Origin: Octopus vulgaris
Lineage: Eukaryota
Assembly (NCBI GenBank): GCA_951406725.2
Contig: CATOCA020000002.1
Coordinates: 124,001 to 188,000 of the forward strand
Direction of reading: 5' to 3'
Length of the DNA: 64,000 nucleotides
The notes beneath the pieces were generated by a model. The model did no database searches. It saw only the letters and a program-made list of their open reading frames with translations, and was not told the origin of the DNA. The position numbers and the translations under genes are program-made. This document shows positions 32,848 to 61,230 of the stretch, piece after piece (the stretch's first letter is position 1; each line of letters begins with the position of its first letter).

Positions 32848-33397
32848 TACATAAATGCAGTGGACATGGCAACAAATATAGCTCCAATCATACTGTGGTA
32901 AATGACTTCAATTCAATAACAGCTTCAATAGCCTGTAGAAGAAATTAAATAAAAAAGAAAAAAGTAGCATTAAGAATTTGGGCAAAAATTGATCACAAAA
33001 ATTTTTGATAGTTAAATATTGCTATATTTTATGAACACAAGCTAAACTGTAAACCAAATTTACTGAAGAAATAAAAAAGTAATTCGCAAACCTACACATG
33101 GTTAATTCATCTAGAAGTTTTGTTTCTTCCTCAAAGAGGCACAAAAATGTTTTCCAGTTTGTTTTAATTACTTCATCCACAACCCTCATATAAACATTAG
33201 TGGTCAAAGGAACATTAAAAAAATACATAGCAAAAGGAAAAAATTATACGCTCACATACATGGTAAATAAAAATAGATGCAACATGTAAGTGAAAATAAT
33301 TATTTAAATTTTGAATTTTCATTTTTCAAAGTCAGAGTCCTTATAAAAAAAATGTGAAATATACAAATGGGTATGCTATTTTAAGTTCATAGTTGCC

Positions 33398-39764: not shown

Positions 39765-40385
39765 TCTATTCCATATATTATATATATAAAACTGAGAATG
39801 TGTGTCTGTCTGTCTGTGTGTTTCCCTAAAACTTGAGAACTACACAACCAATTTCATTAAAACTTTACACATGCCTTACTTAGGGTCCGGGGAGTGTCAT
39901 CGGCAAAAAATTTTTTTAACCTTTTGCCTAGGGCGAGCCCACAGCAATATTATATCTTCTCCACTATGATTCCCTAAAACTTGAATACTACACAACCAAT
40001 TCCATTCAAATTTTACACATGCCTTACTTAGGGTCCACGTAGTTTCATGGGCAAAAAAAATGTTCAACTTCTTGTCTAGATCGAGCCCATAGCAACATCA
40101 TATCTTCTCCACTATTTCAGTATTACGTGTTAAAAGTGAAACAAAAACGTTTCTCTATTTTATGTCAGATACTTTCACTTTAACAGTAAAAATAATAATA
40201 ACAATTGAATTATATGTAGTAAGTAATAATTAAAATCAAACTAAAGTATAATATAATCGTAACATATCAAAAGTAAAAATAGCAATTGGTATAAAATTGC
40301 ATCAATGATTTGAACTTGAATAAGTGGTTTCACATGAATGGGAATAAATTAAAAATAAAATTAGTGTGCAGAAATGGAATAGTCC
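39765..40385 (+). mobile_element. Helitron-like non-autonomous element, 5' portion, with an internal ~150-bp duplication
   Basis: tc..tatatataaaactgagaatgtgtgtctgtctgtctg start. ccctaaaacttga..ctacacaaccaatt..cttacttagggtcc occurs at ~39824 and ~39971. The exact 5' end is uncertain. Confidence 0.5.
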
Positions 40386-40405
40386 AGATGGATAATAAAA
40401 AATTA

Positions 40406-40478
40406 AATTAAAGAAAAGACTATTGTCTATAAAGTATACAATGTAGAGAAAAAAGAAGATTTGAACACATCGAGGAAA
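40406..40478 (+). pseudogene. 5' part of an older Tx1-like ORF1 fragment interrupted by the array
   Basis: IKEKTIVYKVYNVEK/RFEHIEE (one frameshift in an A run) aligns to EKKRIIYKTYDTTTRMIQTIEE of the autonomous ORF1. Confidence 0.7.
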
Positions 40479-42249
40479 TTTACCCACGTGTGTTGTTATC
40501 TGTGATTAGACGTTGAAATTTTGTTGTGTAAAGTGATTAATATCGCGCGAGGCATTTGCCTCCACGTTTGGAAACCTTCCGAAGAAGGTGAATTGACCCT
40601 CTAGTCATGGCGACTTACGCGGGGGTCACGGGAAAGAATAATAGTGATTTGGCAATAATCGTGAAGGATGTTTTCTTTGAGAAGAGTAAACTCAAAGAAT
40701 ATGAAAAACTATTCAAAAGGGAGGGTGATAGCGTGAAGCTAATCCCCCCGCGAAAGCAAAAGAGGACAAAGAAAACAAGACTGTAACATATAGAACCCAA
40801 GAAAAAAATACAAAGAAACTGGCAAGAGTGGAGATAGCAGAAATTGAAAAATGTCTGGGAGACATAATGGGGAAATCGACCTACGTGAGTAGAGGCAAGA
40901 AATTTGGTACGGTGGAGGTGAGATATGCAACGGAAGAAATTGCAGCCTCACTGGCTACCACTGTACTAAGAGCGGAAACATTTATAATGTGGCCCTCATA
41001 CAAGGGAAGAAGAGGGGTCCGGGTTAAAATCCCGAATATACCCCCAGAAGTAAAAACAGAATGGCTGGCAACAGCTATTCTAGGAGCAGCAGAAGAGGAA
41101 GTGGAGGTGGAATCCTTTAAGGAGTCCAACGTGATAAACTGGAGAGGATATGGGGTGGAACTGTGTTTGATGGCCACAAAAGAGGACATTGAAAGGTTCC
41201 CCTACAGAATAGAAATTGAAGATGAGAAAACCCTCAGTGTAATTGTAGAGGGAAGAAAGCCAAACTGCTACTTGTGCGGGACAAGGGGGCACATTAAAAA
41301 AGAGTGCCCGTTATACGAATTCGTAGCGGAGTGCGAGCAGGAGCTCGAAAAGAAGAATACGGTAAATGAAAAAGAAAACATAGAAAAGGAAACAAAACAA
41401 CAAGAGAAAGGAAATAATAAGTCAATGAAGGAAAAAGAAATAAAAGAAAAGAAAGAAATAGAACCAAAACAGAGTCAGGAAAAGAAAAAGGAAAAAGAAA
41501 CAACAGGAAAAAAACAAGAGAGAGATCAGAACCAAACGAAAAGAAAAGACGGCACACAAAAAGAAAAAGAAAAGGAACATAAAACACGAGAGAAAGATAG
41601 AACAGACAAAGAACCAAAAAGACAAGAGAAGGAAGAGGAAAGAAAAGAAGGCAAAAAGAGAGAAAGAGAGAAACAAAGAGAGGAGAACAAGGAAGAAATA
41701 AGCCCGAAAAGAAAAACGAGGGAAAACGTAGGACGGAAACAAGATCACGGCTTCTACAAGTTAGTAACCTTCCATTTCTGCCCTGAAATGAAAGAATTGA
41801 CAAGTAGTACGGAGGGACATATATGGGTCGACAGGATGACCGATCAGTGGCAGGAGACTGCTCTAATCCCCGAAGAAAGAGTCGCTGAGTTCCTCAGAGC
41901 TGCCGGTGAGAGTGTAACATTTTACACGAGTGTTCGAGTGAGAGAGCGGCTGCCTGAGGGCTCAGTGATAGACTTTAGAGAATTGAAAACTATCATGGAA
42001 TATGTATAGAAATGTGAGAAGAGAGAGAAGAAAGAAGAGAAAAAAGAAAATATTGTGAAATATATGTGACGAAAATGTAACCTCTCGATTCCGGGGATCG
42101 AGTGGGCATTTACATCTCATTGTAAATATTCTTTCATATGTCATTTTTTACTTTTATTTTTTCCTTTTCTTGTCATTCGCTTTCTTATTTTAAGTTCCCC
42201 GATTGTATTGTCCCCTCTATGTTCGCCCCTTGTGGGTAATAATAAAATC
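40479..42249 (+). mobile_element. ORF1-only non-autonomous LINE derivative (HAL1-like), copy 1
   Basis: ATG at 40607, frameshift in a C6 run, ORF ends 42009. RRM-like RGKKFGTVEVR, CCHC knuckle CYLCGTRGHIKKEC and a K/E-rich region; no RT. Bounded by ACATCGAGGAAA. Confidence 0.9.
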
Positions 42250-42261
42250 ACATCGAGGAAA

Positions 42262-43253
42262 TTTACCCACGTGTGTTGTTATCTGTGACTAGACAGTGAA
42301 ATTTTGTTCGGTGTAAATTGATTAATATCGCGCGAGGCGTTTGCCTCCACGTGTGGAAACGTTCCGAAGAAGGTGAATTGACCCTCTAGTCATGGCGACT
42401 TACGCGGGGGTCACGGGAAAAAATAATGATTCGTCGATAATCGTGAAGGATGTTTTCTTTGAGAAGGATAAACTCAAAGAATATGAAAAGCTTTTCAAAA
42501 GGGAGGGTGATAGCGTGAAGCTAATCCCCCCCCCCCCCCCCGCGAAAGCAAAAGAGGACAAAGAAAGCAAGACAGTGACATATAGAACCCAAGACAAAAA
42601 TACGAAGAAGCTGGCTAGAGTGGAGATAGCCGAAATTGAAAAATGTCTGGGAGACATAATGGGGAAATCAACCTACGTGAGTAGAGGCAAGAAATTTGGT
42701 ACGGTGGAGGTGAGATGTGCAACGGAAGAAATTGCAGCCTCACTGGCTACCACTGTACTAAGAGCGGAAAAATTTATAATGTGGCCCTCATACAAGGGAA
42801 GAAGAGGGGTCCGGGTTAAAATCCCGAATATACCCCCAGAAGTGAAAACAGAATGGCTGGCAACAGCTATTCTAGGAGCAGCAGAAGAGGAAGTGGAGGT
42901 GGAATCCTTTAAGGAGTCCAACGCGGTAAACTGGAGAGGATATGGGGTAGAACTGTGTTTGATGGCCACAAAAGAGGACATTGAAAGGTTCCCCTACAGA
43001 ATAGAAATTGAAGATGAAAAAACCCTCAGTGTAATTGTAGAGGGAAGAAAACCAAACTGTTACTTGTGCGGGACAAGGGGGCACATTAAAAAAGAGTGCC
43101 CGTTATACGAATTCGTAGCGGAGTGCGAGCAGGAACCTGAAGAAAAGAAGAATACGGTAAATGAAAAAGAAAACATAGAAAAGGAAACAAAACAACAAGA
43201 GAAAGGAAATAATAAGTCAATGAAGGAAAAAGAAATAAAAGAAAAGAAAGAAA
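42262..43253 (+). mobile_element. ORF1-only element copy 2, 3'-truncated
   Basis: ORF from ATG 42392 is in frame through a C16 run. It is cut at gaaagaaa|tttaccc where copy 3 begins. Confidence 0.9.
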
Positions 43254-45003
43254 TTTACCCACGTGTGTTGTTATCTGTGACTAGACAGTGAAATTTTGTT
43301 CGGTGTAAATTGATTAATATCGCGCGAGGCGTTTGCCTCCACGTGTGGAAATGTTCTGAAGAAGGTGAATTGACCCTCTACGGGAAAAAATAATGATTCG
43401 TCGATAATCGTGAAGGATGTTTTCTTTGAGAAGGATAAACTCAAAGAATATGAAAAGCTTTTCAAAAGGGAGGGTGATAGCGTGAAGCTAATCCCCCCCC
43501 GCGAAAGCAAAAGAGGACAAAGAAAGCAAGACAGTGACATATAGAATCCAAGACAAAAATACGAAGAAGCTGGCTAGAGTGGAGATAGCCGAAATTGAAA
43601 AATGTCTGGGAGACATAATGGGGAAATCAACCTATGTGAGTAGAGGCAAGAAATTTGGTACGGTGGAGGTGAGATGTGCAACGGAAGAAATTGCAGCCTC
43701 ACTGGCTACCACTGTACTAAGAGCGGAAAAATTTATAATGTGGCCCTCATACAAGGGAAGAAGAGGGGTCCGGGTTAAAATCCCGAATATACCCCCAGAA
43801 GTGAAAACAGAATGGCTGGCAACAGCTATTCTAGGAGCAGCAGAAGAGGAAGTGGAGGTGGAATCCTTTAAGGAGTCCAACGCGGTAAACTGGAGAGGAT
43901 ATGGGGTAGAACTGTGTTTGATGGCCACAAAAGAGGACATTGAAAGGTTCCCCTACAGAATAGAAATTGAAGATGAAAAAACCCTCAATGTAATTGTAGA
44001 GGGAAGAAAACCAAACTGTTACTTGTGCGGGACAAGGGGGCACATTAAAAAAGAGTGCCCGTTATACGAATTCGTAGCGGAATGCGAGCAGGAACTTGAA
44101 GAAAAGAAGAATACGGTAAATGAAAAAGAAAACATAGAAAAGGAAACAAAACAACAAGAGAAAGGAAATAATAAGTCAATGAAGGAAAAAGAAATAAAAG
44201 AAAAGAAAGAAATAGAACCAAAACAGAGTCAGGAAAAAAAAAAGGAAAAAGAAACAACAGGAAAAAAACAAGAGAGAGATCAGAATCAAACGAAAAGAAA
44301 AGACGGCACACAAAAAGAAAAAGAAAAGGAACATAAAACACGAGAGAAAGAGAGAACAGACAAAGAACCAAAAAGACAAGAGAAGGAAGGAGAAAGAAAA
44401 GAAGGCAAAAAGAGAGAAAGAGAGAAACAAAGAGAGGAGAACAAGGAAGAAATAAGCCCGAAAAGAAAAATGAAGGAAAACGTAGGACGGAAACAAGATT
44501 ACTGCTTCTACAAGTTAGTAACCTTCCATTTCTGCCCTGAAATGAAAGACTTGACATGTAATACGGAGGGACATATATGGGTCAACAGGATGACCGATCA
44601 GTGGCAGGAGACTGCTCTAATCCCCGAAGAAAGAGTCGCTGAGTTCCTCAGAGCTGCCGGAGAGAGTGTAATATTTTACACGAGTGTTCGAGTGAGAGAG
44701 CGGCTGCCTGAGGGCTCAGTGATGGACTTTAGAGAATTGAAAGCTATTATGGAATATGTATAGAATTGTGAGAACAGAGAGAAGAAAGAAGAGAAAAAAG
44801 AAAATTTTGTGAAATATATGTGACGAAAATGTAACCTCTCGATTCCGGGGATCGAGTGGGCATTTACATCTCATTGTAAATATTCTTTCATATGTCATTT
44901 TTTACTTTTATTTTTTCCTTTTCTTGTCATTCGCTTTCTTATTTTAAGTTCCCCGATTGTATTGTCCCATCTATGTTCGCCCCTTGTGGGTAGTAATAAA
45001 ATC
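43254..45003 (+). mobile_element. ORF1-only element copy 3
   Basis: ORF 43534-44763. A ~25-bp deletion near 43380 removes the ATG. Full 3' terminus present. Confidence 0.9.
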
Positions 45004-45015
45004 ACATCGAGGAAA

Positions 45016-48000
45016 TCAATTTTTTGCGTTATTAGTAAGTTGATATATATTTTTGCTCTCGTACTATTATCTCTGTTATTATATACTGTTGGTCTACCTG
45101 TTTTGTCTATTGTTGTCTAACTGACGAAGTCAGCCTTCGCGCGAAGACTTCGCGTTGGTGTTCCCCCCTCAGTGGGGGAAAACTACAATTAATTTGGATT
45201 TACCAAAGGCTTGTTAAAGCCATTTGTTCAAGATGGAGTCCCCCATCTCTTATTCGCCCGTGACGAGCGAGGATGAATACCCGGCGTTGTCGCCAGGAAA
45301 AAAAGAGGCGTTGTCGCCAAGAAAAAAAGAGGCGTTGTCGCCGAAGAAAAAAGAGGCGGCGTCGCCCAAGAAAATGGAAAAACCAGTACCAGCATCAACT
45401 CCAGCAAAAAAATTCGCTGAAGTGGCTGGGAAAAAGATCAAAAAATAAATATAGAAAATTTTGGAAAATTTGCAGACTGTGTTAAAAAAGAAGGCACAGA
45501 AGTGACTGTGGCCACAAATATACAAAAACATGACGAGATAGAAAAAAAAAGAATAATATTTAAAACTTACGACACAACGACAAAAATGATACAAAAAATC
45601 GAAGAAAAAAAATAGAGTATTGTCTAAAACCTTTTATGGATAAAATAACGTATATAAACAGAGGAAAAAGATACGGCACAGTGGAGGTGCGTTTTACTAC
45701 GGAGGAGATAGCGAAGAAAATATCAATGGAGCCGATCAAAGCGGAAAACATTGTCTTACTACCATTGTATAAAGGAAAAAGGACGTCGAAAATTTCAATG
45801 AACAACATACCGCCAGAGGCAGATGCTGAATGCCTAGTGGCAGCAGTGATGGTAGGTCTGGAGGAAAAAATAAACATCCTCCAGGCCACAGTGGAGGAAG
45901 AGGAGTTCTGGAAAGGGCAGAAAATAGTGATAGCCATTCAGGCAGAAGTGCAAACCCTGGAAGAGATCCCAGAGACTCTTAGGATAAGCGAAGATGAAAG
46001 AGTCACAGTCTTCGTAGAGGGCAGAAAGCCGAGGTGCTTCGGCTGCGGTAAGAAGGGGCATGTAAGGGCGGAATGCCAGCCCCAACCCAAACCGCAGGAA
46101 GCACCTAAGCCAAAAGAAAAAGAAGACAATGTGTCACCAGAAGCAGCGTCAGACGGCCCAGAAGGGAAGACTGAAGGTGTGGAGGTGAGTGACAGCAGAA
46201 CCAGCGGCGGAGGAAAAAAAGAGCGAGGAAAAGATAAATGAGGAGGGGTGGGCAAAAATTATCGGAAAAAAAAAAAGAAAAACGGAAACCACCCCTCCCA
46301 GAGTAATTTTAAAAAAGAAAAAAGAGTCAATAAACTCATATATGGCCGTAAAAGCATCAAATAGCAGACTCGGAAACGTGTTGGCAGCCATGGCCAAAGT
46401 GAAGAAAGTAGAGAAAAAAAATGACTTTGTAATTTACAGAATAGACCGGAAGGATTACGGGCGGATAAAGTCAGAATTCTTCCATGACGTAGGCCCACTT
46501 AGGTTGGATGTGACATCTCCACATATATTCGAGGGCCTACGTCAGACTCCCCCACGAGGCCCAGAAAAAGAGTTAGAGAAGAAGAAAAACCGAACCACTG
46601 ATATAAAGGTAAGTAATGGATTACATTTATGTTGGTTGTTTAAATGTGCGCGGCCTGGGAGCAGGCTGGAAGCAAGGTCGCTTCCTGCATGATATCAGGT
46701 CGCGTAATTTAGATGTTATTGTTGCTACAGAAACCCGGTTAGAGGGGCCAAGAGGTCTACTCCCGCTGTTTGACGGCTACGAGAGTTTTTTCTCTCCTGG
46801 CAGTCCTACAGGCGGGAGTGGGGTGTTGGTCCTATTAAAAAGAAACCGGGTTTCTGAGAAAAAGTTAATTTTTGCAGATCCAGAAGGTAGGCTGGTCGTC
46901 ATGGATTTGACGTTCAGTAATGGTAAAGTTATCAGACTGGTTGCAATTTACGCACCCAACCATACAGGGCAAAGTGATTATTTTCGTGAACTAGAAAACT
47001 TTCTTGGTACTTCGCATTCATTAGTGGTGCTAGGAGACTTTAACACAATTTGCAAAGCGGATGTAGATTATGTTGGCTCGTGTCCAGACAGAAAAGGCAA
47101 CAGTGGCTTCATGGAACTGCTAAGCCGCTTTGAGCTAGCAGATCCTTATAGGCTGGAATTTCCGAACGCTCCATTGTGGACATGGTCAGACAGCGACGGA
47201 TCTTCCAGGTCATATTTAGATAGAATACTAATTAGAAAAGTAGACAGTAAAATAGCTAAGTGTCCACAGTTTTACCCGATCAGCTACAGTGATCATAAAA
47301 TGGTCACTTGTAAGCTTGACATAGATAAGGTTAAAAATAGAGGATCCGGTTACTGGAAACTTAATACGTCCCTTTTGGCGATTAAGGAGTACAAAGACCG
47401 GATTAGGAATATAATTCAGAGGGCACTATCTGGTACCATCATTAATAACAAATGGTGGTACGCCCTCAAACGAGCCATCAAGTTTGAGTCTATTAGATAT
47501 AGCATAGGAGTAGTGGCTAGAGAGGCTAGAAGGGAAACTACTCTAGTTAAGGAATTAGAGGAAGCCATGAAAACTGGCTCTGCGGCTCAGGTGGCGTCCA
47601 AGAGACTGGTGTTAAACCAGCACCTCGAGGCCAAACACATGGGCAGCATTGTCAGGGCTAGAATCCGCCATATGGGATGTGAAGGAATCAACGCCGTGAG
47701 ATGGGCCCGAGTGGTGGAAGCTCAGCATGGTAACGATGCCACGATTCGATCTTTGCCGAACCAACAAGGTGAGTTGATAAACGAACCCGAGGAGATGTGT
47801 GAGGCCTTTCAGGAGCACTTCGCTCAGCTTTTCGGTGAGTGCGGCGGGCTGGATAGGAAGAGGGCCTTTACGGACCTACTCGACGGTCTGCCGCGCTTAT
47901 CGCGGCGAGATACGGAGGGCTGTGAAGGTCCAATCACGCCTGAGGAGGTGGTTGAGGCAATGGCGGACTGCGGCGCGGGCAAGGTGCCGGGTTTGGATGG

Positions 48001-50259
48001 TCTACCCTATGAGTTATATAAGAGTATGCCAGACTTGTTCGGGCACCTACTGGCGGAGGTCTATGCGAACTGGCAGCAGAACGGGCTTATACCCAGATCT
48101 GTGCGCCGGGGAGTAGTGACTCTCGTCAGAAAGGACCCGAGCAAGGGGGAGTGTATTGATAATTTCAGGCCCATCACTCTGCTAAACACAGAGTTGAAGA
48201 TTTTGGCCAAAGTGTTATCGAAAAGATTGGCCGCGTGTCGCGGATGGTCTGATCGGAGGGGCACAGACATGTGCCGTTCCGGGCAGATCCATTCAGGATA
48301 ATCTCCATCTAATGCGGTACACTATAGAGGGGTTTAATAGTGATTCTGGCAAGGGTGGGGCACTGGTCCATTTAGACCAATCTAAAGCTTTTGATAGGGT
48401 CGACCATCGTTACCTGGTATCTGCCCTGGCACAGTTCGGGCTGAGCCTTGGATTCCTCAGGTGGATTATCCAAATTTATGATAACATCGACTCGGTAGTT
48501 CGGGTGAACGGCTTCTTGTCGAAGCCGTTCAAAATCAAACGCTCGGTTCGTCAAGGGTGTCCGCTCTCCCCGCTTTTGTACGTGATGGCTCTTGAGCCAT
48601 TACTGCGAAAACTGAGCGGCATCCCGAGACAGCCAGGTAATGGAAAATCAGTGTCAGCGTACGCGGATGACATCACCATCATCGTAACCGAAATGGACCA
48701 CCTATGTAAAGTAGGCAAGGCCATAGAGGTGTACGAGACGGTGACAGGAGCAAAAGTTAATCGCGAAAAGTCAGTCGGCTTGCAACTCGGCACCTGGAGA
48801 GGCAAGTCGATGCCTCCTGACAGCGTCGTGGGACGTTGGACGGAGGGTCCGATTAAACTGCTAGGGGTCTGGTTCGGTCCAGACCTCCAAATAGAGAAGA
48901 ATTGGGGCGAGGTAACGAGCAAGGTGGCTGCAGTAGCCAAGACCTGGTCTTGGCGGTGGCTATCCCTGAAAGGGAGGGCGGAGGTGGCCAATGTGTTTAT
49001 CGCATCGGTTATCACCTACCGCCTTTCCGTCGTTCCTTGCCCTGATTCGTGGTTGATCAAGTTGGAAAGACAGCTCTTCTACTTCTTGTGGAAGGGCGGG
49101 AAACCACTTGTGAAACGCTCTACTTGCTGTCAACAACCGTTAAAGGGTGGGCTAGGGATGCCTTGGCTGATGATGCGCAGACATGCGCTGAGGTTAAGAC
49201 ATCTGTGGCTCTACCTGGATGGTGAACGGGTGTGGTCTTCGCTAGCAAAACTGATGTTTCCCAAGTTCACTAGTTTCGGTGGATGGGAAACCTGGCTGAA
49301 TCGTAGATCGAAACTTGGTACTTGGTACACGGAGTGTCGCAAGGCTCTCCTGCTATTCCGTCGCTCGGGCAACGCCTGCGGTGGGGGTTCCACCCACATT
49401 CTTCTATAGAGGGTTGGTAGAGGCGGAATGTGAAGATACCTTGGGGGAAACCCTGGGTCTCGACGATAATCAGCTGGCCAGTCTGTTCCGACGTACGTTC
49501 GAGCCGAGGACACCGGACAACTTCCAGAAGTCTCTGGCATGGCAATGCTACAGAGGAGCTCTACCTGTTCGGGATAAACTCGCAAGGCACGGTGGCCAAG
49601 ACAGTCCGATATGTCCAAGATGCGGGCGGGATAGGGAAACCGTCCCGCACGCTATTGTTCATTGTCCGGACGTGTCTGAGGTGTGGGTTTATGCCGAACA
49701 CCTGTTGTCAGGTACACGAAGAGTACAGCTGTCGACTGAGTCGATTACAAAAATTGACCCACCGGATTTCCTCGTGAATGAAGGTAAGTTTCGTTTTCTC
49801 GTTGTAGTAGCAATCGCGAAAGAGGTGATATGGAAGACGAGAATGAAAGGTTTACAGTCAGGCAAGTTCATCTCCGGCCCTGGTTTGATGAATTATTTCA
49901 TCTTTCACCTGAAAAGGAAGATAGGGCTGGAGAGAATATGCCTGACTAGGAGAGTGTATGAAGAACGATGGAAGGATGTAGCACGAAAGTTGCGAGTGAA
50001 AGACACAACATAAATGTAATACCAAGCGCAACCAAAAGTATCAGTGGGGAGGCGGGGCTCGTGGGGTCCGAGCTAAACCCGCACCCACTCCACCCGTAAT
50101 GTTTTCCGGTCTGTCCCATCATCCGATTTCTGTCCATTTATTGTAATTCATGAAAATTTTTAAATTCGATTTATTGTAAAAACCCATTCGTGTGTCTGAC
50201 CCCATCATCAGATTGTATTGTCCCATCTATGTTCGCCCCTTGTGGGTAATAATAAAACA
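45016..50259 (+). mobile_element. Full-length Tx1/L1-group LINE, copy 1
   Basis: ORF1 from 45233 with CCHC CFGCGKKGHVRAEC and frameshifts. ORF2 46616-50013 has frameshifts near 48231 and 49393. Confidence 0.95.
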
Positions 50260-50271
50260 ACATCGAGGAAA

Positions 50272-53200
50272 TCAATTTTTTGCGTTATTAGTAAGTTGAT
50301 ATATATTTTTGCTCTTGTACTATTATCTCTGTTATTATATACTGTTGGTCTACCTGTTTTGTCTATTGTTGTCTAACTGACGAAGTCAGCCTTCGCGCGA
50401 AGACTTCGCGTTGGTGTTCCCCCCTCCGTGGGGGAAAACTACAATTAATTTGGATTTACCAAAGGCTTGTTAAAGCCATTCGTTCAAGATGGAGTCCCCC
50501 ATCTCTTATTCGCCCGTGACGAGCGAGGATGAATACCCGGCGTTGTCGCCAGGAAAAAAAGAGGCGTTGTCGCCAAGAAAAAAAGAGGCGCTGTCGCCGA
50601 AGAAAAAAGAGGCGGCGTCGCCCAAGAAAATGGTAAAACCAGTACCAGCATCAACTCCAGCAAAAAAATTCGCTGAAGTGGCTGGGAAAAAAATTAAAAA
50701 AATTAACGTGGACAACCTGGGAAAATTTGCAGACTGTGTAAAAAAAGAAGGCACAGAAGTGACTGTGGCCACAAACTTACAAAAACATGACGAGATAGAA
50801 AAAAAAAGAATAATATATAAAACTTACGACACAACGACAAGAATGATCCAAACAATCGAAGAAAAAAAGTAGAGTTTTGTCTAAAACCTTTTATGGATAA
50901 AATAACGTATATAAACAGAGGAAAAAGATACGGCACAGTGGAGGTGCGTTTTACTACGGAGGAGACAGCGAAGAAACTATCAATGGAGCCAATCAAAGCG
51001 GAAAACATTGTCTTACTACCATTGTATAAAGGAAAAAGGACGTCGAAAATTTCAATGAACAACATACCGCCAGAGGCAGATGCTGAATGTCTGGTGGCAG
51101 CAGTGATGGTAGGCCTGGAGGAAAAAATAAACATCCTCCAGGCCACAGTGGAGGAAGAGGAGTTTTGGAAAGGGCAAAAAATAGTGATAGCCATTCAGGC
51201 GGAGGTGCAAACACTGGAAGAAATTCCAGAAACGGTAAAGATTAGTGAAGACGAGAAAATAACAGTTTTCGTGGAGGGCAGGAAGCCGAGGTGCTTCGGC
51301 TGCGGTAAGAAGGGGCATGTAAGGGCGGAATGCCACCCCAACCCAAACCGCAGGAAGCACCTAAGCCAAAAGGAAAAAGAAGACAATGTGTCACCAGAAG
51401 CAGCGTCAGACGGCCCAGAAGGGAAGACTGAAGGTGTGGAGGTGATGGTAACAGCAGAACCAGCGGCGGAGGAAAAAAAGAGCGAGGAAAAGATAAATGA
51501 GGAGGGGTGGGCAAAAATTATCGGAAAAAAAAAAAGAAAAACGGAAACCACCCCTCCCAGAGTAATTTTAAAAAAGAAAAAAGAGTCAATGAACTCATAT
51601 ATGGCCGTAAAAGCATCAAATAGCAGACTCGGAAACGTGTTGGCAGCCATGGCCAAAGTGAAGAAAGTAGAGAAAAAAATGACTTTGTAATTTACAGAAT
51701 AGACCGGAAGGATTACGGGCGGATAAAGTCAGAATTCTTCCATGACGTAGGCCCACTTAGATTGGATGTGACATCTCCACATATATTCGAGGGCCTACGT
51801 CAGACTCCCCCATGAGGCCCAGAAAAAAAAGAGTTAGAAGAACAAGAGAAAACCGAACCACTGATATAAGGTAAGTAATGGATTACATTTATGTTGGTTG
51901 TTTAAATGTGCGCGGCCTGGGAGCAGGCTGGAAGCAAGGTCGCTTCCTGCATGATATCAGGTCGCGTAATTTAGATGTTATTGTTGCTACAGAAACCCGG
52001 TTAGAGGGGCCAAGAGGTCTACTCCCGCTGTTTGACGGCTACGAGAGTTTTTTCTCTCCTGGCAGTCCTACAGGCGGGAGTGGGGTGTTGGTCCTATTAA
52101 AAAGAAACCGGGTTTCTGAGAAAAAGTTAATTTTTGCAGATCCAGAAGGTAGGCTGGTCGTCATGGATTTGACGTTCAGTAATGGTAAAGTTATCAGACT
52201 GGTTGCAATTTACGCACCCAACCATACAGGGCAAAGTGATTATTTTCGTGAACTAGAAAACTTTCTTGGTACTTCGCATTCATTAGTGGTGCTAGGAGAC
52301 TTTAACACAATTTGCAAAGCGGATGTAGATTGTGTTGGCTTGCGTCCAGATAGAAAAGGCTTCATGGAACTGCTAAGCTGCTTTGAGCTAGCAGATCCTT
52401 ATAGGCTGGAATTTCCGAACGCTCCATTGTGGACATGGTCAAACAGCGACGGATCTTCCAGGTCATATTTAGATAGAATACTAATTAGAAAAGTAGACAG
52501 TAAAATAGCTAAGTGTCCACAGTTTTACCCGATCAGCTACAGTGATCATAAAATGGTCACTTGTAAGCTTGACATAGATAAGGTTAAAAATAGAGGATCC
52601 GGTTACTGGAAACTTAATACGTCCCTTTTGGCGATTAAGGAGTACAAAGACCGGATTAGGAATATAATTCAGAGGGCACTATCTGGTACCATCATTAATA
52701 ACAAATGGTGGTACGCCCTCAAACGAGCCATCAAGTTTGAGTCTATTAGATATAGCATAGGAGTAGTGGCTAGAGAGGCTAGAAGGGAAACTACTCTAGT
52801 TAAGGAATTAGAGGAAGCCATGAAAACTGGCTCTGCGGCTCAGGTGGCGTCCAAGAGACTGGTGTTAAACCAGCACCTCGAGGCCAAACACATGGGCTGC
52901 ATTGTCAGGGCTAGAATCCGTCATATGGGATGTGAAGGAATCAACGCCGTGAGATGGGCCCGAGTGGTGGAAGCTCAGCATGGTAACGATGCCACGATTC
53001 GATCTTTGCCGAACCAACAAGGTGAGTTGATAAACGAACCCGAGGAGATGTGTGAGGCCTTTCAGGAGCACTTCGCTCAGCTTTTCGGTGAGTGCGGCGG
53101 ACTGGATAGGAGGAGGGCCTTTACGGACCTACTCGACGGGCTGCCGCGCTTATCGCGGCGAGATGCGGAGGGCTGTGAAGGGCCAATCACGCTTGAGGAG

Positions 53201-55508
53201 GTGGTTGAGGCAATGGCGGATTGCGGCGCGGGCAAGGCGCCGGGTTTGGATGGTCTACCCTATGAGTTATATAAGAGTATGCCAGACTTGTTCGGGCACC
53301 TACTGGCGGAGGTCTATGCGAATTGCCAGCAGAACGGGCTTATACCCAGATCTGTGCGCCGGGGAGTAGTGACTCTCGTCAGAAAGGACCCGAGCAAGGG
53401 GGAGTGCATTGATAATTTCAGGCCCATCACTCTGCTAAACACAGAGTTGAAGATTTTGGCCAAAGTGTTATCGAAAAGATTGGCGCGTGTCGCGGATGGT
53501 CTGATCGGAGGGGCACAGACATGTGCCGTTCCGGGCAGATCCATTCAGGATAATCTCCATCTAATGCGGTACACTATAGAGGGGTTTAATAGTGATTCTG
53601 GCAAGGGTGGGGCACTGGTCCATTTAGACCAATCTAAAGCTTTTGATAGGGTCGACCATCGTTACCTGGTATCTGCCCTGGCACAGTTCGGGCTGAGCCT
53701 TGGCTTCCTCAGGTGGATTATCCAAATTTATGATAACATCGACTCGGTAGTTCGGGTGAACGGCTTCTTGTCGAAGCCGTTCAAAATCAAACGCTCGGTT
53801 CGTCAAGGGTGTCCGCTCTCCCCGCTTTTGTACGTGATGGCTCTTGAGCCATTACTGCGAAAACTGAGCGGCATCCCGAGACAGCCAGGTAATGGAAAAT
53901 CAGTGTCAGCGTACGCGGATGACATCACCATCATCGTAACCGAAATGGACCACCTATGTAAAGTAGGCAAGGCCATAGAGGTTTACGAGACGGTGACAGG
54001 AGCAAAAGTTAATCGCGAAAAGTCAGTCGGCTTGCAACTCGGCACCTGGAGAGGCAAGTCGATGCCTCCTGACAGCGTCGTGGGACGTTGGACGGAGGGT
54101 CCGATTAAACTGCTAGGGGTCTGGTTCGGTCCAGACCTCCAAATAGAGAAGAATTGGGGCGAGGTAACGAGCAAGGTGGCTGCAGTAGCCAAGACCTGGT
54201 CTTGGCGGTGGCTATCCCTGAAAGGGAGGGCGGAGGTGGCCAATGTGTTTATCGCATCGGTTATCACCTACCGCCTTTCCGTCGTTCCTTGCCCTGATTC
54301 GTGGTTGATCAAGTTGGAAAGACAGCTCTTCTACTTCTTGTGGAAGGGCGGGAAACCACTTGTGAAACGCTCTACTTGCTGTCAACAACCGTTAAAGGGT
54401 GGGCTAGGGATGCCTTGGCTGATGATGCGCAGACATGCGCTGAGGTTAAGACATCTGTGGCTCTACCTGGATGGTGAACGGGTGTGGTCTTCGCTAGCAA
54501 AACTGATGTTTCCCAAGTTCACTAGTTTCGGTGGATGGGAAACCTGGCTGAATCGTAGATCGAAACTTGGTACTTGGTACACGGAGTGTCGCAAGGCTCT
54601 CCTGCTATTCCGTCGCTCGGGCAACGCCTGCGGTGGGGGTTCCACCACATTCTTCTATAGAGGGTTGGTAGAGGCGGAATGTGAAGATACCTTGGGGGAA
54701 ACCCTAGGTCTCGACGATAATCAGCTGGCCAGTCTGTTCCGACGTACGTTCGAGCCGAGGACACTGGACAACTTCCAGAAGTCTCTGGCATGGCAATGCT
54801 ACAGAGGAGCTCTACCTGTTCGGGATAAACTCGCAAGGCACGGTGGCCAAGACAGTCCGATATGTCCAAGATGCGGGCGGGATAGGGAAACCGTCCCGCA
54901 CGCTATTGTTCATTGTCCGGACGTGTCTGAGGTGTGGGTTTATGCCGAACACCTGTTGTCAGGTACACGAAGAGTACAGCTGTCGACTGAGTCGATTACA
55001 AAAATTGACCCACCGGATTTCCTCGTGAATGAAGGTAAGTTTCGTTTTCTCGTTGTAGTAGCAATTGCGAAAGAGGTGATATGGAAGACGAGAATGAAAG
55101 GTTTACAGTCAGGCAAGTTCATCTCCGGCCCTGGTTTGATGAATTATTTCATCTTTCACCTGAAAAGGAAGATAGGGCTGGAGAGAATATGCCTGACTAG
55201 GAGAGTGTATGAAGAACGATGGAAGGATGTAGCACGAAAGTTGCGAATGAAAGTTACAACATAAATGTAATACCAAGTGCAACCAAAAGTATCAGTGGGG
55301 AGGCGGGGCTCGTGGGGTCCGAGCTAAACCCGCACCCACTCCACCCGTAATGTCTTCCGGTCTGTCCATCACTCGATTTTTGTCCATTTATTGTAATTCA
55401 TGAAAATTTTAAATTCGATTTATTGTAAAAACCCATTCGTGTGTCTGACCCCATCATCAGATTGTATTGTCCCATATTTGTTCGCCCCTTGTGGGTAATA
55501 ATAAAACA
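50272..55508 (+). mobile_element. Full-length Tx1/L1-group LINE, copy 2
   Basis: ORF1 from 50489 is frameshifted mainly in homopolymer runs. ORF2 is intact. Confidence 0.95.
51878..55264 (+). CDS. Intact LINE ORF2: APE endonuclease, reverse transcriptase, C-terminal CCHC
   Basis: 1128 aa. LNVRGL, ATET, LGDFN, YLDRIL, SDH; GYWKLN; FRPITLLN, LDQSKAFDRV, RQGCPLSPLLY, YADD; GGLG; CPRC..ETVPHAIVHC. Confidence 0.95.
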   Translation: MDYIYVGCLNVRGLGAGWKQGRFLHDIRSRNLDVIVATETRLEGPRGLLPLFDGYESFFSPGSPTGGSGVLVLLKRNRVSEKKLIFADPEGRLVVMDLTFSNGKVIRLVAIYAPNHTGQSDYFRELENFLGTSHSLVVLGDFNTICKADVDCVGLRPDRKGFMELLSCFELADPYRLEFPNAPLWTWSNSDGSSRSYLDRILIRKVDSKIAKCPQFYPISYSDHKMVTCKLDIDKVKNRGSGYWKLNTSLLAIKEYKDRIRNIIQRALSGTIINNKWWYALKRAIKFESIRYSIGVVAREARRETTLVKELEEAMKTGSAAQVASKRLVLNQHLEAKHMGCIVRARIRHMGCEGINAVRWARVVEAQHGNDATIRSLPNQQGELINEPEEMCEAFQEHFAQLFGECGGLDRRRAFTDLLDGLPRLSRRDAEGCEGPITLEEVVEAMADCGAGKAPGLDGLPYELYKSMPDLFGHLLAEVYANCQQNGLIPRSVRRGVVTLVRKDPSKGECIDNFRPITLLNTELKILAKVLSKRLARVADGLIGGAQTCAVPGRSIQDNLHLMRYTIEGFNSDSGKGGALVHLDQSKAFDRVDHRYLVSALAQFGLSLGFLRWIIQIYDNIDSVVRVNGFLSKPFKIKRSVRQGCPLSPLLYVMALEPLLRKLSGIPRQPGNGKSVSAYADDITIIVTEMDHLCKVGKAIEVYETVTGAKVNREKSVGLQLGTWRGKSMPPDSVVGRWTEGPIKLLGVWFGPDLQIEKNWGEVTSKVAAVAKTWSWRWLSLKGRAEVANVFIASVITYRLSVVPCPDSWLIKLERQLFYFLWKGGKPLVKRSTCCQQPLKGGLGMPWLMMRRHALRLRHLWLYLDGERVWSSLAKLMFPKFTSFGGWETWLNRRSKLGTWYTECRKALLLFRRSGNACGGGSTTFFYRGLVEAECEDTLGETLGLDDNQLASLFRRTFEPRTLDNFQKSLAWQCYRGALPVRDKLARHGGQDSPICPRCGRDRETVPHAIVHCPDVSEVWVYAEHLLSGTRRVQLSTESITKIDPPDFLVNEGKFRFLVVVAIAKEVIWKTRMKGLQSGKFISGPGLMNYFIFHLKRKIGLERICLTRRVYEERWKDVARKLRMKVTT

Positions 55509-55520
55509 ACATGGAGGAAA

Positions 55521-58500
55521 TCAATTTTTTGCGTTTATTAGTAAGTTAATATATTTTTGCTCTCGTACTATTATCTCTGTTATTATATACTGTTGGTCTA
55601 CCTGTTTTGTCTATTGTTGTCTAACTGACGAAGTCAGACTTCGCGTTGGTGTTCCCCCCTCCGTGGGGGAAAACTACAATTAATTTGGATTTACCAAAGG
55701 CTTGTTAAAGCCATTTGTTCAAAATGGAGTCCCCCATCACTTATTCGCCCGTGACGAGCGAGGATGAATACCCGGCGTTGTCGCCAAGTAAAAAAGAGGC
55801 GTTGTCGCCAAGAAAAAAAGAGGCGCTGTCGCCGAAGAAAAAAGAGGCGGCGTCGCCCAAGAAAATGGTAAAACCAGTACCAGCATCAACTCCAGCAAAA
55901 AAATTCGCTGAAGTGGCTGGGAAAAAATTAAAAAAATTAACGTGGACAACCTGGGAAAACATGCAGACTGTGAAAAAAGAGGGCACAGAAGTAACCGTGG
56001 CTTCAAACGCCAAAATACAGAGGATATTTCGAATAGGAGAATAATCTATAAGACATTCAGTATAACAAACAGAGCAATCCAAAAAATAGAAGAAAAAAGA
56101 TTGAAAACTGCTTAAAACCAATAATGGACAAAATTACGTATATCAATCGAGGGAAGAAATACGGCACAGTGGAGGTGAGATTCACGTCAGAGGAGGTAGC
56201 AAAGAAGCTATCCATGGAACCCATAAAAGCGGAAATATTGTCTACTACCATTGTATAAAGGAAAAAGGACGTCAAAATCACAATGAACAACATCCCGCCA
56301 GAAGCGGATGCGAATGTCTGGTGGCAGCAGTTATGGTAGGCCTGGAGGAAAAAATAAACATCCTCCAGGCCACAGTAGAGAAGAAGAATTCTGGAAAGGG
56401 CAAAAGATAATAATAGCCATTCAAGCAGAGGTGCAAACCCTGGAAGAGATTCCAGAGACTCTTAAAGATAAGCGAAGATGAAAAGTCACAGTCTTCGTAG
56501 AGGGCAGAAAGCCGAGGTGCTTCGGCTGCGGTAAGAAGGGGCATGTAAGGGCGGAATGCCAACCCCAACCCAAACCGCAGGAAGCACCTAAGCCAAAAGG
56601 AAAAGAAGACAATGTGTCACCAGAAGCAGCGTCAGACGGCCCAGAAGGGAAGACTGAAGGTGTGGAGGTGATGGTGACAGCAGAACCAGCGGCGGAGGAA
56701 AAAAAGAGCGAGGAAAAGATAAATGAGGAGGGGTGGGCAAAAATTATCGGAAAAAAAAAAAGAAAAACGGAAACCACCCCTCCCAGAGTAATTTTAAAAA
56801 AGAAAAAAGAGTCAATAAACTCATATATGGCCGTAAAAGCATCAAATAGCAGACTCGGAAACGTGTTGGCAGCCATGGCCAAAGTGAAGAAAGTAGAGAA
56901 AAAAATGACTTTGCAATTTACAGAATAGACCGGAAGGATTACGGGCGGATAAAGTCAGAATTCTTCCATGACGTAGGCCCACTTAGGTTGGATGTAACAT
57001 CTCCACATATATTCGAGGGCCTACGTCAGACTCCCCCACGAGGCCCAGAAAAAAAGAGAAGAAGAAGAAAAACCGAACCACTGATATAAAGGTAAGTAAT
57101 GGATTACATTTATGTTGGTTGTTTAAATGTGCGCGGCCTGGGAGCAGGCTGGAAGCAAGGTCGCTTCCTGCATGATATCAGGTCGCGTAATTTAGATGTT
57201 ATTGTTGCTACAGAAACCCGGTTAGAGGGGCCAAGAGGTCTACTCCCGCTGTTTGACGGCTACGAGAGTTTTTTCTCTCCTGGCAGTCCTACAGGCGGGA
57301 GTGGGGTGTTGGTCCTATTAAAAAGAAACCGGGTTTCTGAGAAAAAGTTAATTTTTGCAGATCCAGAAGGTAGGCTGGTCGTCATGGATTTGACGTTCAG
57401 TAATGGTAAAGTTATCAGACTGGTTGCAATTTACGCACCCAACCATACAGGGCAAAGTGATTATTTTCGTGAACTAGAAAACTTTCTTGGTACTTCGCAT
57501 TCATTAGTGGTGCTAGGAGACTTTAACACAATTTGCAAAGCGGATGTAGATTGTGTTGGCTCGTGTCCAGATAGAAAAGGCAACAGTGGCTTCATGGAAC
57601 TGCTAAGCCGCTTTGAGCTAGCAGATCCTTATAGGCTGGAATTTCCGAACGCTCCATTGTGGACATGGTCAAACAGCGACGGATCTTCCAGGTCATATTT
57701 AGATAGAATACTAATTAGAAAAGTAGACAGTAAAATAGCTAAGTGTCCACAGTTTTACCCGATCAGCTACAGTGATCATAAAATGGTCACTTGTAAGCTT
57801 GACATAGATAAGGTTAAAAATAGAGGATCCGGTTACTGGAAACTTAATACGTCCCTTTTGGCGATTAAGGAGTACAAAGACCGGATTAGGAATATAATTC
57901 AGAGGGCACTATCTGGTACCATCATTAATAACAAATGGTGGTACGCCCTCAAACGAGCCATCAAGTTTGAGTCTATTAGATATAGCATAGGAGTAGTGGC
58001 TAGAGAGGCTAGAAGGGAAACTACTCTAGTTAAGGAATTAGAGGAAGCCATGAAAACTGGCTCTGCGGCTCAGGTGGCGTCCAAGAGACTGGTGTTAAAC
58101 CAGCACCTCGAGGCCAAACACATGGGCTGCATTGTCAGGGCTAGAATCCGTCATATGGGATGTGAAGGAATCAACGCCGTGAGATGGGCCCGAGTGGTGG
58201 AAGCTCAGCATGGTAACGATGCCACGATTCGATCTTTGACGAACCAACAAGGTGAGTTGATAAACGAACCCGAGGAGATGTGTGAGGCCTTTCAGGAGCA
58301 CTTCGCTCAGCTTTTCGGTGAGTGCGGCGGACTGGATAGGAGGAGGGCCTTTACGGACCTACTCGACGGTCTGCCGCGCTTATCGGGGCGAGATGCGGAG
58401 GGCTGTGAAGGGCCAATCACGCCTGAGGAGGTGGTTGAGGCAATGGCGGACTGCGGCGCGGGCAAGGCGCCGGGTTTGGATGGTCTACCCTATGAGTTAT

Positions 58501-60739
58501 ATAAGAGTATGCCAGACTTGTTCGGGCACCTACTGGCGGAGGTCTATGCGAACTGGCAGCAGAACGGGCTTATACCCAGATCTGTGCGCTGGGGAGTAGT
58601 GACTCTCGTCAGAAAGGACCCGAGCAATGGGGGAGTGCATTGATAATTTCAGGCCCATCACTCTGCTAAACACAGAGTTGAAGATTTTGGCCAAAGTGTT
58701 ATCGAAAAGATTGGCGCGTGTCGCGGATGGTCTGATCGGAGGGGCACAGACATGTGCCGTTCCGGGCAGATCCATTCAGGATAATCTCCATCTAATGCGG
58801 TACACTATAGAGGGGTTTAATAGTGATTCTGGCAAGGGTGGGGCACTGGTCCATTTAGACCAATCTAAAGCTTTTGATAGGGTCGACCATCGTTACCTGG
58901 TATCTGCCCTGGCACAGTTCGGGCTGAGCCTTGGCTTCCTCAGGTGGATTATCCAAATTTATGATAACATCGACTCGGTAGTTCGGGTGAACGGCTTCTT
59001 GTCGAAGCCGTTCAAAATCAAACGCTCGGTTCGTCAAGGGTGTCCGCTCTCCCCGCTTTTGTACGTGATGGCTCTTGAGCCATTACTGCGAAAACTGAGC
59101 GGCATCCCGAGACAGCCAGGTAATGGAAAATCAGTGTCAGCGTACGCGGATGACATCACCATCATCGTAACCGAAATGGACCACCTATGTAAAGTAGGCA
59201 AGGCCATAGAGGTTTACGAGACGGTGACAGGAGCAAAAGTTAATCGCGAAAAGTCAGTCGGCTTGCAACTCGGCACCTGGAGAGGCAAGTCGATGCCTCC
59301 TGACAGCGTCGTGGGACGTTGGACGGAGGGTCCGATTAAACTGCTAGGGGTCTGGTTCGGTCCAGACCTCCAAATAGAGAAGAATTGGGGCGAGGTAACG
59401 AGCAAGGTGGCTGCAGTAGCCAAGACCTGGTCTTGGCGGTGGCTATCCCTGAAAGGGAGGGCGGAGGTGGCCAATGTGTTTATCGCATCGGTTATCACCT
59501 ACCGCCTTTCCGTCGTTCCTTGCCCTGATTCGTGGTTGATCAAGTTGGAAAGACAGCTCTTCTACTTCTTGTGGAAGGGCGGGAAACCACTTGTGAAACG
59601 CTCTACTTGCTGTCAACAACCGTTAAAGGGTGGGCTAGGGATGCCTTGGCTGATGATGCGCAGACATGCGCTGAGGTTAAGACATCTGTGGCTCTACCTG
59701 GATGGTGAACGGGTGTGGTCTTCGCTAGCAAAACTGATGTTTCCCAAGTTCACTAGTTTCGGTGGATGGGAAACCTGGCTGAATCGTAGATCGAAACTTG
59801 GTACTTGGTACACGGAGTGTCGCAAGGCTCTCCTGCTATTCCGTCGCTCGGGCAACGCCTGCGGTGGGGGTTCCACCACATTCTTCTATAGAGGGTTGGT
59901 AGAGGCGGAATGTGAAGATACCTTGGGGGAAACCCTAGGTCTCGACGATAATCAGCTGGCCAGTCTGTTCCGACGTACGTTCGAGCCGAGGACACTGGAC
60001 AACTTCCAGAAGTCTCTGGCATGGCAATGCTACAGAGGAGCTCTACCTGTTCGGGATAAACTCGCAAGGCACGGTGGCCAAGACAGTCCGATATGTCCAA
60101 GATGCGGGCGGGATAGGGAAACCGTCCCGCACGCTATTGTTCATTGTCCGGACGTGTCTGAGGTGTGGGTTTATGCCGAACACCTGTTGTCAGGTACACG
60201 AAGAGTACAGCTGTCGACTGAGTCGATTACAAAAATTGACCCACCGGATTTCCTCGTGAATGAAGGTAAGTTTCGTTTTCTCGTTGTAGTAGCAATTGCG
60301 AAAGAGGTGATATGGAAGACGAGAATGAAAGGTTTACAGTCAGGCAAGTTCATCTCCGGCCCTGGTTTGATGAATTATTTCATCTTTCACCTGAAAAGGA
60401 AGATAGGGCTGGAGAGAATATGCCTGACTAGGAGAGTGTATGAAGAACGATGGAAGGATGTAGCACGAAAGTTGCGAGTGAAAGATACAACATAAATGTA
60501 ATACCAAGTGCAACCAAAAGTATCAGTGGGGAGGCGGGGCTCGTGGGGTCCGAGCTAAACCCGCACCCACTCCACCCGTAATGTCTTCCGGTCTGTCCAT
60601 CATTCGATTTCTGTCCATTTATTGTAATTCATGAAAATTTTTAAACCCGATTTATTGTAAAAACCCATTCGTGTGTCTGACCCCATCATCAGATTGTATT
60701 GTCCCATCTATGTAGCCCCTAGTGGGTAATAATAAAACA
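55521..60739 (+). mobile_element. Full-length Tx1/L1-group LINE, copy 3
   Basis: ORF1 has a diverged N-terminal segment and several frameshifts. ORF2 57099-60495 has one frameshift near 58627. Confidence 0.95.
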
Positions 60740-60751
60740 ACATGGAGGAAA

Positions 60752-61050
60752 GCACCTTCGAAAAGTGTCTTGGTGCGACTATGAAAGGTATCTAATCAGA
60801 GGCGGTAAATTTGCCACAATAGAAGCAAGGTTCGAGTCAACGGAGCGTGCAAGGGAGTACTCGACTCGAACTTGCAAAGTGGAAATATTTTATTTTTACC
60901 TTTATATGAGGAGTAGATAGGACGTCCCGGGAAAAAATTTAACCCCCCCCCCCCCCCGAAGTAGAGGTAGGCTGGATTGTAGCCACACTTCTATACAAGA
61001 AGGAGGACACGATACAATTGATCGAAATTACAAGAGACGGGCTAACAATT
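60752..61050 (+). pseudogene. 3' continuation of the older Tx1-like ORF1 fragment
   Basis: STFEKCLGATMK..RGGKFATIEARFESTERA..GNILFLPLY..PPEVEVGWIVATLL aligns to EIEKCLGDIMGK..RGKKFGTVEVRYATEEIA..PPEVKTEWLATAIL. Confidence 0.8.
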
Positions 61051-61188
61051 CCAGTCTGTTATATATTTTGAGTGTTGTTATCACTAGCGATATCAAGATA
61101 TAACTTTGTATTTTGTATTTTATGTGTAGATGTATATATATAGATGTACATGTAATATGTACACATATATATACACATATATACATGC

Positions 61189-61230
61189 ACTAGCACTATG
61201 ACCCGGCAACGACGGGTCTTTAATGCTAGT
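61189..61230 (+). mobile_element. Helitron-like 3' terminus
   Basis: Hairpin gacccg-gcaacga-cgggtc (61200-61218), 7 nt upstream of CTAG|T (61226-61230). Confidence 0.6.

Follow-up and report, generated by a model that had tools for sequence, protein, structure and literature searches.

A 64-kb stretch of Octopus vulgaris DNA, called the window in what follows and counted from its first letter, contains at 40467-60739 a head-to-tail array of six retroelement units: three of an element designated A (1.78 kb) and three of a long interspersed nuclear element (LINE) designated B (5.25 kb), separated by variants of one short sequence. Element A encodes the first open reading frame (ORF1) of a retrotransposon of the type without long terminal repeats (non-LTR) and has no ORF2. 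It is a protein-coding, ORF1-only non-autonomous LINE, belonging to the class of known ORF1-only derivatives represented by HAL1, HeT-A and Ag-Sponge (PMC5786205, PMC5753468), and it multiplies as a family of its own whose ORF1 is under purifying selection. Probably, A is a long-lived non-LTR family which inserts at a single base of a Helitron, moves through RNA and is copied in trans by the ORF2 protein of B by way of a 47-nt tail. A preliminary description of the sequence had taken 40479-45003 for one ORF1-only element of 1.75 kb; the ORF1-only element was real, and the span proved to hold three A copies, two full-length and one truncated.

The first copy, A1 (40467..42249, plus strand like all units of the array), is full-length with 1783 nt, including a leader at 40467..40483 that is the 5' copy of a 16-17-nt target duplication, in a variant unlike the host allele at 60740. 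The ORF1 of A1 (40607..42009, ATG at 40607, stop at 42009) encodes a domain resembling an RNA recognition motif (RRM), a second ferredoxin-like domain, a CCHC knuckle, a K/E tract and a C-terminal domain, and it goes out of frame at a run of six C near 40744. The 47-nt tail held in common with B lies at 42201..42247, with a candidate GCCC-loop-GGGT hairpin, an AATAAA and no poly(A). The second copy, A2 (42250..43254), is a 5' part cut at element position ~981 and joined through GAAA microhomology to A3 (43255..45003, tail at 44955-45001), which is 94% identical to A1 and has lost its start codon through a 25-nt deletion. The nearest relatives of A1 and A3 lie on other chromosomes, 1.33% and 1.46% apart, respectively.

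The organization described earlier for A (ORF1 only, with an RRM-like region, CCHC, K/E tract and distinct C-terminus) has been confirmed. Intact A ORF1s elsewhere have 465-469 amino acids, and the zinc knuckle (PF00098) scores above the Pfam cut-off; in four ORF1s submitted to Pfam, zf-CCHC was the sole family found and no L1 ORF1 family was detected. In the predicted structure of the core (pLDDT 81, alignment of 10), an RRM is followed by a second ferredoxin-like domain and then by one CCHC knuckle, and the model matches the RRMs of La and nucleolin (Z 8.4, root-mean-square deviation 2.6, 76-79 aligned). For the C-terminal domain a beta-alpha-beta-beta-alpha-beta fold is predicted (pLDDT 77, alignment of 4); the assignment of a function to it was abandoned, since its best match (Z 7.1, root-mean-square deviation 2.0, 64 aligned) falls in the range of common arrangements. 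All ten protein matches of the A ORF1 are labelled Octopus vulgaris, and one more distant match is from Octopus bimaculoides (P0086).

That A is an independent family follows from its distribution and from its pattern of variation. A DNA search with A gave at least 47 scored matches on many chromosomes, a count which is a lower bound, mostly full-length at 93-99% identity, and the young copies are 0-0.5% apart. An exact 21-nt motif at the end of the A ORF1 has 74 matches genome-wide, in 29 loci, 28 of them at the Helitron site; in all 74 the tail follows 230-249 nt downstream, and never an ORF2. Among the 74 aligned copies, variants shared by at least three loci give a ratio of nonsynonymous to synonymous polymorphism (pN/pS) of 0.08 in the N-terminus and core (11 nonsynonymous, 40 synonymous), 0.19 in the K/E tract, 0.36 in the C-terminus and 0.16 overall (49 and 83), while private variants give 0.43. 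In comparison with the sister families E1 and E2, the corresponding ratio of divergence (dN/dS) is 0.10-0.13 at a dS of 1.2-1.3. Neutral evolution of ORF1, a lack of independent insertions and an origin as simple deletion products of an autonomous element had each been named in advance as findings that would speak against an ORF1-only partner. In fact, a pN/pS of 0.08-0.16 for shared variants, insertions on many chromosomes and 74 of 74 ORF1 ends without ORF2 were obtained.

Further ORF1-only families, overlooked in the preliminary description as was the Helitron target, occupy the same arrays: a subfamily of A (88% identical), E1 and E2 (1.93 kb, ORF1 of 489-493 amino acids, core 72-77% identical to that of A), and D1 and D2 (1.68-1.74 kb, ORF1 of 453-472 amino acids, core 29-34% identical). 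The ORF1s of A and B are 36% identical in the core and 28% overall, and those of B and a further LINE, B76, 53%. A protein search with P0086, which scored the best 114 among 159,485 first-look candidates and from which 30 loci were read, brought up older A-clade members, several of which carry an A-type 3' untranslated region (UTR); no ORF2 start was found behind an A-clade ORF1 in those 30 loci. In a tree of 33 ORF1 cores, built without rows shorter than 130 amino acids or at least 90% identical to a reference and including four long branches of unsure position, the A clade comprises 14 rows with a support of 96/99; none of the 14, one of which stands at a locus edge, is followed by an ORF2 start. 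The D rows make up a separate clade, and B, B91, B76 and their relatives group apart (91/89, not starred). By this placement, the ORF1-only lineages seem to predate the divergence of the autonomous families that they accompany. At C7:13.47 Mb (L288), a run of much more diverged ORF1-like frames without ORF2 lies behind a B76-type copy; these frames form the longest branch of the tree.

With regard to mobility, A shows the hallmarks of target-primed reverse transcription, namely duplications, 5' truncation and, as the mark of an RNA intermediate, one A>G copy. Duplications of 16-17 nt flank truncated and off-target B copies and one of 7 nt flanks the single off-target A, while 5'-truncated A copies are found at C1:93.3 and C1:133.8 Mb. 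One A copy of 99 (C2:150.14 Mb, L120) carries 44 private substitutions, all of them A>G on the sense strand, and in one D1 copy of 13 (L132:4195-5930) 21 of 24 private changes are A>G. This is the mark expected from A-to-I hyper-editing of a transcript before reverse transcription, and movement of A through an RNA intermediate is therefore considered likely. In both hyper-mutated copies the A>G changes are clustered in the A-rich tract. Dispersal is also seen in the relationships among copies: for 61 of 99 A copies the nearest relative is at another locus, and A1 and A3, with a mutual identity of 94%, are nevertheless 1.3-1.5% from copies on other chromosomes. In four runs of guessed kind, contigs span the junction from the tail to the 5' UTR, one of them leading from a Helitron left arm into A; they give neither ends, strand nor level, and nothing was drawn from them.

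The three B units in the window are full-length: B1 (45004..50259), with both ORFs frameshifted; B2 (50260..55508), with an open ORF2 of 1128 amino acids at 51878-55264; and B3 (55509..60739), the 3'-most unit and presumably the first insertion. The B ORF2 contains an APE endonuclease (PF03372), a reverse transcriptase (PF00078) and a zf-RVT domain (PF13966), and its best match among solved structures is human L1 ORF2p (E 2e-65). These features place B, the presumed helper, in the L1/Tx1 group, the Tx1 label resting on the type of ORF1 and on site specificity. No named Tx1 reference for B was found among 75 matches or the 8 clusters looked up, and naming the clade by database matches was given up because these are unnamed.

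The tails of A1 and B1 are identical at 46 of 47 nt, and in a blastn comparison of the whole elements nothing beyond the tail (E 1e-14) matches significantly, the runner-up spanning 22 nt with E 0.008. The statement that A and B share only a 3' terminus is therefore correct at the DNA level; it does not extend to the ORF1 proteins, which are homologous, nor to the 5' leaders, which are alike because both derive from the target. For the 30-nt core of the tail, 225 exact matches were obtained genome-wide, and the reversed control gave 0. Moreover, in all arrays inspected every tail runs directly into a target duplication, so the reported absence of poly(A) has been borne out. The hairpin is the consensus fold of 36 tail variants, with 98.6% of cells paired and a variable loop. 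Compared with other LINEs, the A tail agrees with that of B at 45 of 47 positions and with that of the next one, B76, at 39 of 46. The median distance to the nearest copy at another locus is 0.52% for A and 0.56% for B, that is, both are of the same age, and at C3:38.18 Mb an A copy stands upstream of a copy of the B91 subfamily, at the different target of B91. The common insertion base, the equal age and the fact that A follows B91 to another target make it likely that A borrows the ORF2 of the B family. The earlier proposal that the ORF2 is the neighbour's own was thus probably right as to the family; the helper need not be adjacent, since arrays of A alone exist.

The host of the array is a non-autonomous Helitron. 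Joined to each other, the flanks of the array make up a ~1.0-1.2-kb repeat that, as a Helitron does, starts with A^TC and ends in a terminal hairpin and CTAG^T, without a duplication; in 30 empty copies inspected by eye, A^TCT starts 19 of the 24 with a visible 5' end and CTAG^T ends 21 of the 24 with a visible 3' end. In the window, the left arm occupies 39776..40466 (plus strand, start approximate, 94% match to an empty copy, 5' TC mutated) and the right arm 60740..61229 (plus strand), with the host copy of the target, a terminal hairpin at 61200 and the CTAG end. The Helitron bears a decayed piece of ORF1 from a related LINE, and the target is within this fragment, which begins at 40405..40466 (plus strand) and resumes at 60740-61040; it was detected by tblastn when the ORF1s of the families were compared with empty copies of the Helitron (E down to 6e-8). 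The best library relative of this fragment is P0228 (E 4e-17), the relatives in the library being 42-60% identical, and its source family was not found in the genome. The genome has 256 exact empty sites and 56 exact sites filled on the 3' side by B-, E- or A-type ends, all at one base, a count which excludes D-type ends. A few off-target copies lie at ACAT/ACGT-like sites.

Recognition of the target seems to rest on its left half, since loss of the right half is tolerated. In a Helitron variant without the right half, E, the A subfamily and a B subfamily still insert at an unchanged distance from the left half, and on C20 an A copy stands upstream of a D copy with no ACAT left. This variant lacks ~310 nt to the right of the site (L113, L114, L139, L141, L143, L323, L325), which creates a new junction, and the leaders found there derive from the new right half. 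A second repeated target, with the left half ...TTTCACC^AACTG, is used by the B91 subfamily and other relatives at L135, L123, L146 and L149 (C3:136.2, C3:38.18, C4:135.9 and C5:36.1 Mb) and occurs downstream of L224, L227, L240, L242 and L249 as well. The Helitron itself is also found as head-to-tail pairs, often in (TA)n runs (L025:3200-4769, L092, L147), one pair having an empty site beside a filled one.

The variants of the duplicated target allow the order of insertion to be followed. The host allele is present at 42 of 48 right junctions versus 10 of 31 left junctions (p 6e-7), and where an A|B junction carries a variant, the A leader repeats it in 6 of 8 cases. It follows that A arrived after B, at the 5' junction, and these sequence patterns indicate that the arrays, which reach 23 units, grow at their upstream end. 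Identical multi-base leader variants are found on more than one chromosome and precede A as well as B. Loci with a common variant do not have closer Helitron arms (0.949 vs 0.947 for the left arm, 0.917 vs 0.923 for the right), and off-target B copies at C3:117.26 and C2:46.86 Mb carry a donor-type leader unlike the local target. By eye, leader variants at the 5' junctions of A, E and D tend toward complementarity with the first bases of the element, forming short hairpins, which suggests template switching or snap-back at this junction.

A mechanism can be proposed on this basis. The B ORF2 protein would bind the shared 47-nt tail of the A RNA, while A would make its own ORF1 protein and coat its own RNA with it in cis, keeping the ORF1 gene under selection. 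The B endonuclease would nick after the left half of the target (...GATTTGAAC^A), and because this left half would survive upstream of each insertion, new copies would enter at the 5' junction and the array would grow from one end. Transcripts would start at or just upstream of the 5' duplication, so that the donor leader would sometimes be written into the new 5' junction. At the other end, the AATAAA is only 3 nt from the end of A, and cleavage usually takes place 10-30 nt after such a signal. The RNA may thus be cleaved ~19-20 nt beyond AATAAA, after the downstream duplication, acquiring a 3' flank which matches the target, would prime reverse transcription and would explain the missing poly(A). 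A read-through flank is described as raising the insertion of R2Ol (PMC6530143).

Several observations, nevertheless, weigh against this picture. The ORF1 is open in only 5 of 97 full-length A copies, the frame-breaking run of six C occurs in 72 of 94, and 136 of 197 frameshifting indels adjoin homopolymers; assembly error in homopolymers is a likely source, decay or frameshifting being the alternatives. The covariation proposed as a check on the 3' tail was not seen, as 0 of 4 pairs change on both sides, and shuffled versions of the 36 tail variants fold as well. Identical units are also found in the longest arrays, that on C7 with 22 A and one B and that on C22 with 8 A, so that local duplication adds copies as well. 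In addition, the unit order is markedly asymmetric despite the equal youth of both families (A>B 23 times, B>A once), which a shared endonuclease alone fails to explain. The tail is likewise insufficient: a 24-nt variant of it has 19,065 exact matches in the genome, the first 30 of which all belong to a repeat resembling a short interspersed nuclear element (SINE), none followed by the Helitron target; none of the top 30 B76-like copies abuts the Helitron right arm, several being in arrays of relatives; and the D tail is closer to that of B76 (43 of 46) than to that of B (38 of 44), yet D is at the Helitron site. A simple rule by which the tail alone sets the target is thus not supported, since the SINE-like repeat and B76 have the tail core and mostly lie elsewhere. 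Among the D1 loci, 13 of 30 abut the Helitron and the other 17 are upstream of A, B or D, the query being biased toward the target. The SINE-like repeat is ~250 nt long (L191-L220, e.g. L194:1280-1525), ends in the tail core and is absent from the window array; it often occurs as 184-nt tandem units, apparently through insertion into its own head region. It gave no Rfam match, and a tRNA origin was assessed by sight only.

A rival explanation keeps the borrowed ORF2 and has site choice shaped by the A ORF1 or by the read-through RNA flank, A preferring occupied sites and B empty ones; it is a serious possibility, though less probable than the simpler reading. Besides the order of A and B, the full unit counts favour it (A>A 62, B>host 34, A>host 12), as do the 3'-most elements genome-wide, of which 51 of 56 have a B/E1-type end and 5 an A-type end; age was rejected as the cause of the A-before-B order, the ages being equal. 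The D elements, whose tail points to B76 and whose target is that of B, also fit. In other systems, the TRE5-A ORF1 is described as binding a targeting factor in vitro (PMC3159450) and HeT-A Gag as targeting telomeres (PMC5537684). Against it, A does occupy empty sites (the 12 cases above) and follows B91 to another target; short bursts, unresolvable at 0.5% divergence, could produce the same order; and the loci counted were chosen partly for containing A. A bolder joint reading, which we regard as unlikely, would make the ORF1-only families specialists, several ancient clades, each with a C-terminal domain of its own, steering one borrowed ORF2 to different slots of the array through their ORF1 or RNA flank. 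In this joint reading, the endonuclease would have evolved against the ORF1 of rival LINEs, and the capture of an ORF1 piece by the Helitron would have amplified a safe harbour. The slots would be taken by B first, A and E next and D outermost, and the array would then be a dated, one-ended record of insertions.

It is distinctly improbable that another LINE of the group to which B belongs acts as helper, either B76 or an unsampled one, A and B having obtained tail and site from a common pool or by tail swaps. Many related LINEs with the tail core do exist. Furthermore, the same tail variants (e.g. a form with a shorter loop, at 60692-60739 in the window) recur across B, E1 and D copies, which points to repeated tail exchange between families. 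On the other hand, no tail matches better than that of B (45 of 47), B and A are equally young, and no other full-length family was found abutting the Helitron site, B76 being mostly elsewhere. Even less credit can be given to the possibility that A and B travel as one read-through transcript, or that the Helitron or unequal crossing over spreads entire arrays. In its favour, A almost always precedes B, loci on C11, C14, C19 and C7 have near-identical A beside near-identical B, and neighbours in the C7 and C22 arrays are identical. However, in 21 A|B pairs the distance of A is weakly correlated with that of B (rho 0.20, p 0.06), arrays without B exist, and A1 and A3 in the window are each nearest to a copy on another chromosome. 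Composite transposition of A and B as the main route was rejected on account of this weak correlation, and Helitron-borne duplication of filled sites because the arms are not shared. Finally, an origin of the A copies by simple deletion from an autonomous element with an A-type ORF1 can practically be dismissed, given that all 74 ORF1 ends lead to the tail, that no ORF2 start stands behind an A-clade ORF1 in the 30 loci and that A has no 3' ORF2 remnant, even if a rare or old autonomous relative might lie beyond the best 114 of the 159,485 candidates scored and the 30 loci read.

Outside the array, a 1.44-kb inverted duplication (33398-34820 and 37724-39159, 98.7% identical, 3 kb apart) lies just left of the Helitron, and an open frame of 645 codons on the minus strand at 30970-32907 has no Pfam family above cut-off.

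The A system bears on the question why some elements retain ORF1 without ORF2, for which HAL1 is an old example. Young, probably active ORF1-only families with a defined target and a 47-nt tail make trans mobilization testable with plasmids, and the same system makes ORF1-ORF2 compatibility and the role of the read-through flank accessible to experiment. Moreover, the Helitron joins the transposons used as LINE targets, and tail plus flank represent a compact, site-specific cargo design for retrotransposon-based insertion. In a repeat annotation of O. vulgaris, 13 L1-Tx1 families are given as recently active (PMC13282606); ORF1 and non-autonomous elements are unmentioned in the main text of that work, whose supplements may contain these consensus sequences. 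No account of the A family, of ORF1-only Tx1 partners or of a Helitron-targeting LINE was found in a literature search made without Repbase and subscription journals. What sets the system apart is the combination of deep ORF2-less protein-coding clades, an ORF1 far from that of the helper, a Helitron target in a captured ORF1 piece and one-ended arrays.

The system resembles several known ones. HAL1 proper has a mammalian L1-type ORF1 (coiled coil, RRM and C-terminal domain) and a poly(A) tail. A works as an ORF1-only partner, and to this extent the original label "HAL1-like" is apt; it is not HAL1 proper, as it has an RRM-RRM-CCHC ORF1 with a K/E tract, no poly(A), a sequence-specific target, young copies and an ORF1 core only 36% identical to that of its presumed helper. 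What both have in common is to be non-autonomous, ORF1-only and of the L1 group and to have arisen more than once (PMC5753468, PMC5786205 for HAL1 of mammals). HeT-A, which accompanies TART and TAHRE at Drosophila telomeres, is also ORF1-only; it encodes a conserved protein of its own and stands head to tail with autonomous partners in arrays that grow at one end, with a promoter region shared across the junction. Its source of reverse transcriptase is assumed, and biochemical proof is lacking in the account consulted (PMC5537684). HeT-A, however, belongs to the Jockey clade and is added to chromosome ends, whereas A, as a member of the L1/Tx1 group, would use endonuclease-cut interior sites, with 16-17-nt duplications and hundreds of separate target copies. 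A parallel on the B side is offered by Tx1-Mar with SINEU in Mariner-N4_AMi and by Tx1L in Tx1D, where, as reported, a Tx1-type LINE hits one spot of a non-autonomous DNA transposon, the non-autonomous partner shares the target, tandem copies are split by a 16-nt duplication and transcription from the flank has been proposed (PMC4494074). Unlike SINEU as described there, A is a protein-coding partner under selection with several deep clades, and it sits in a piece of ORF1 captured by a Helitron, in arrays of up to 23 units. TRE5-A.2 of Dictyostelium is, like A, an ORF1-bearing, ORF2-less and site-selective element, mobilized in trans via its 3' end and with an ORF1 acting in cis, as is proposed here for A (PMC3159450). 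Nevertheless, TRE5-A.2 derives from its helper by deletion and has kept the same ORF1, and a foreign ORF1 with 25% identity is reported not to have worked for TRE5-A (PMC3159450), while the ORF1 of A is 28% identical overall to that of its presumed helper.

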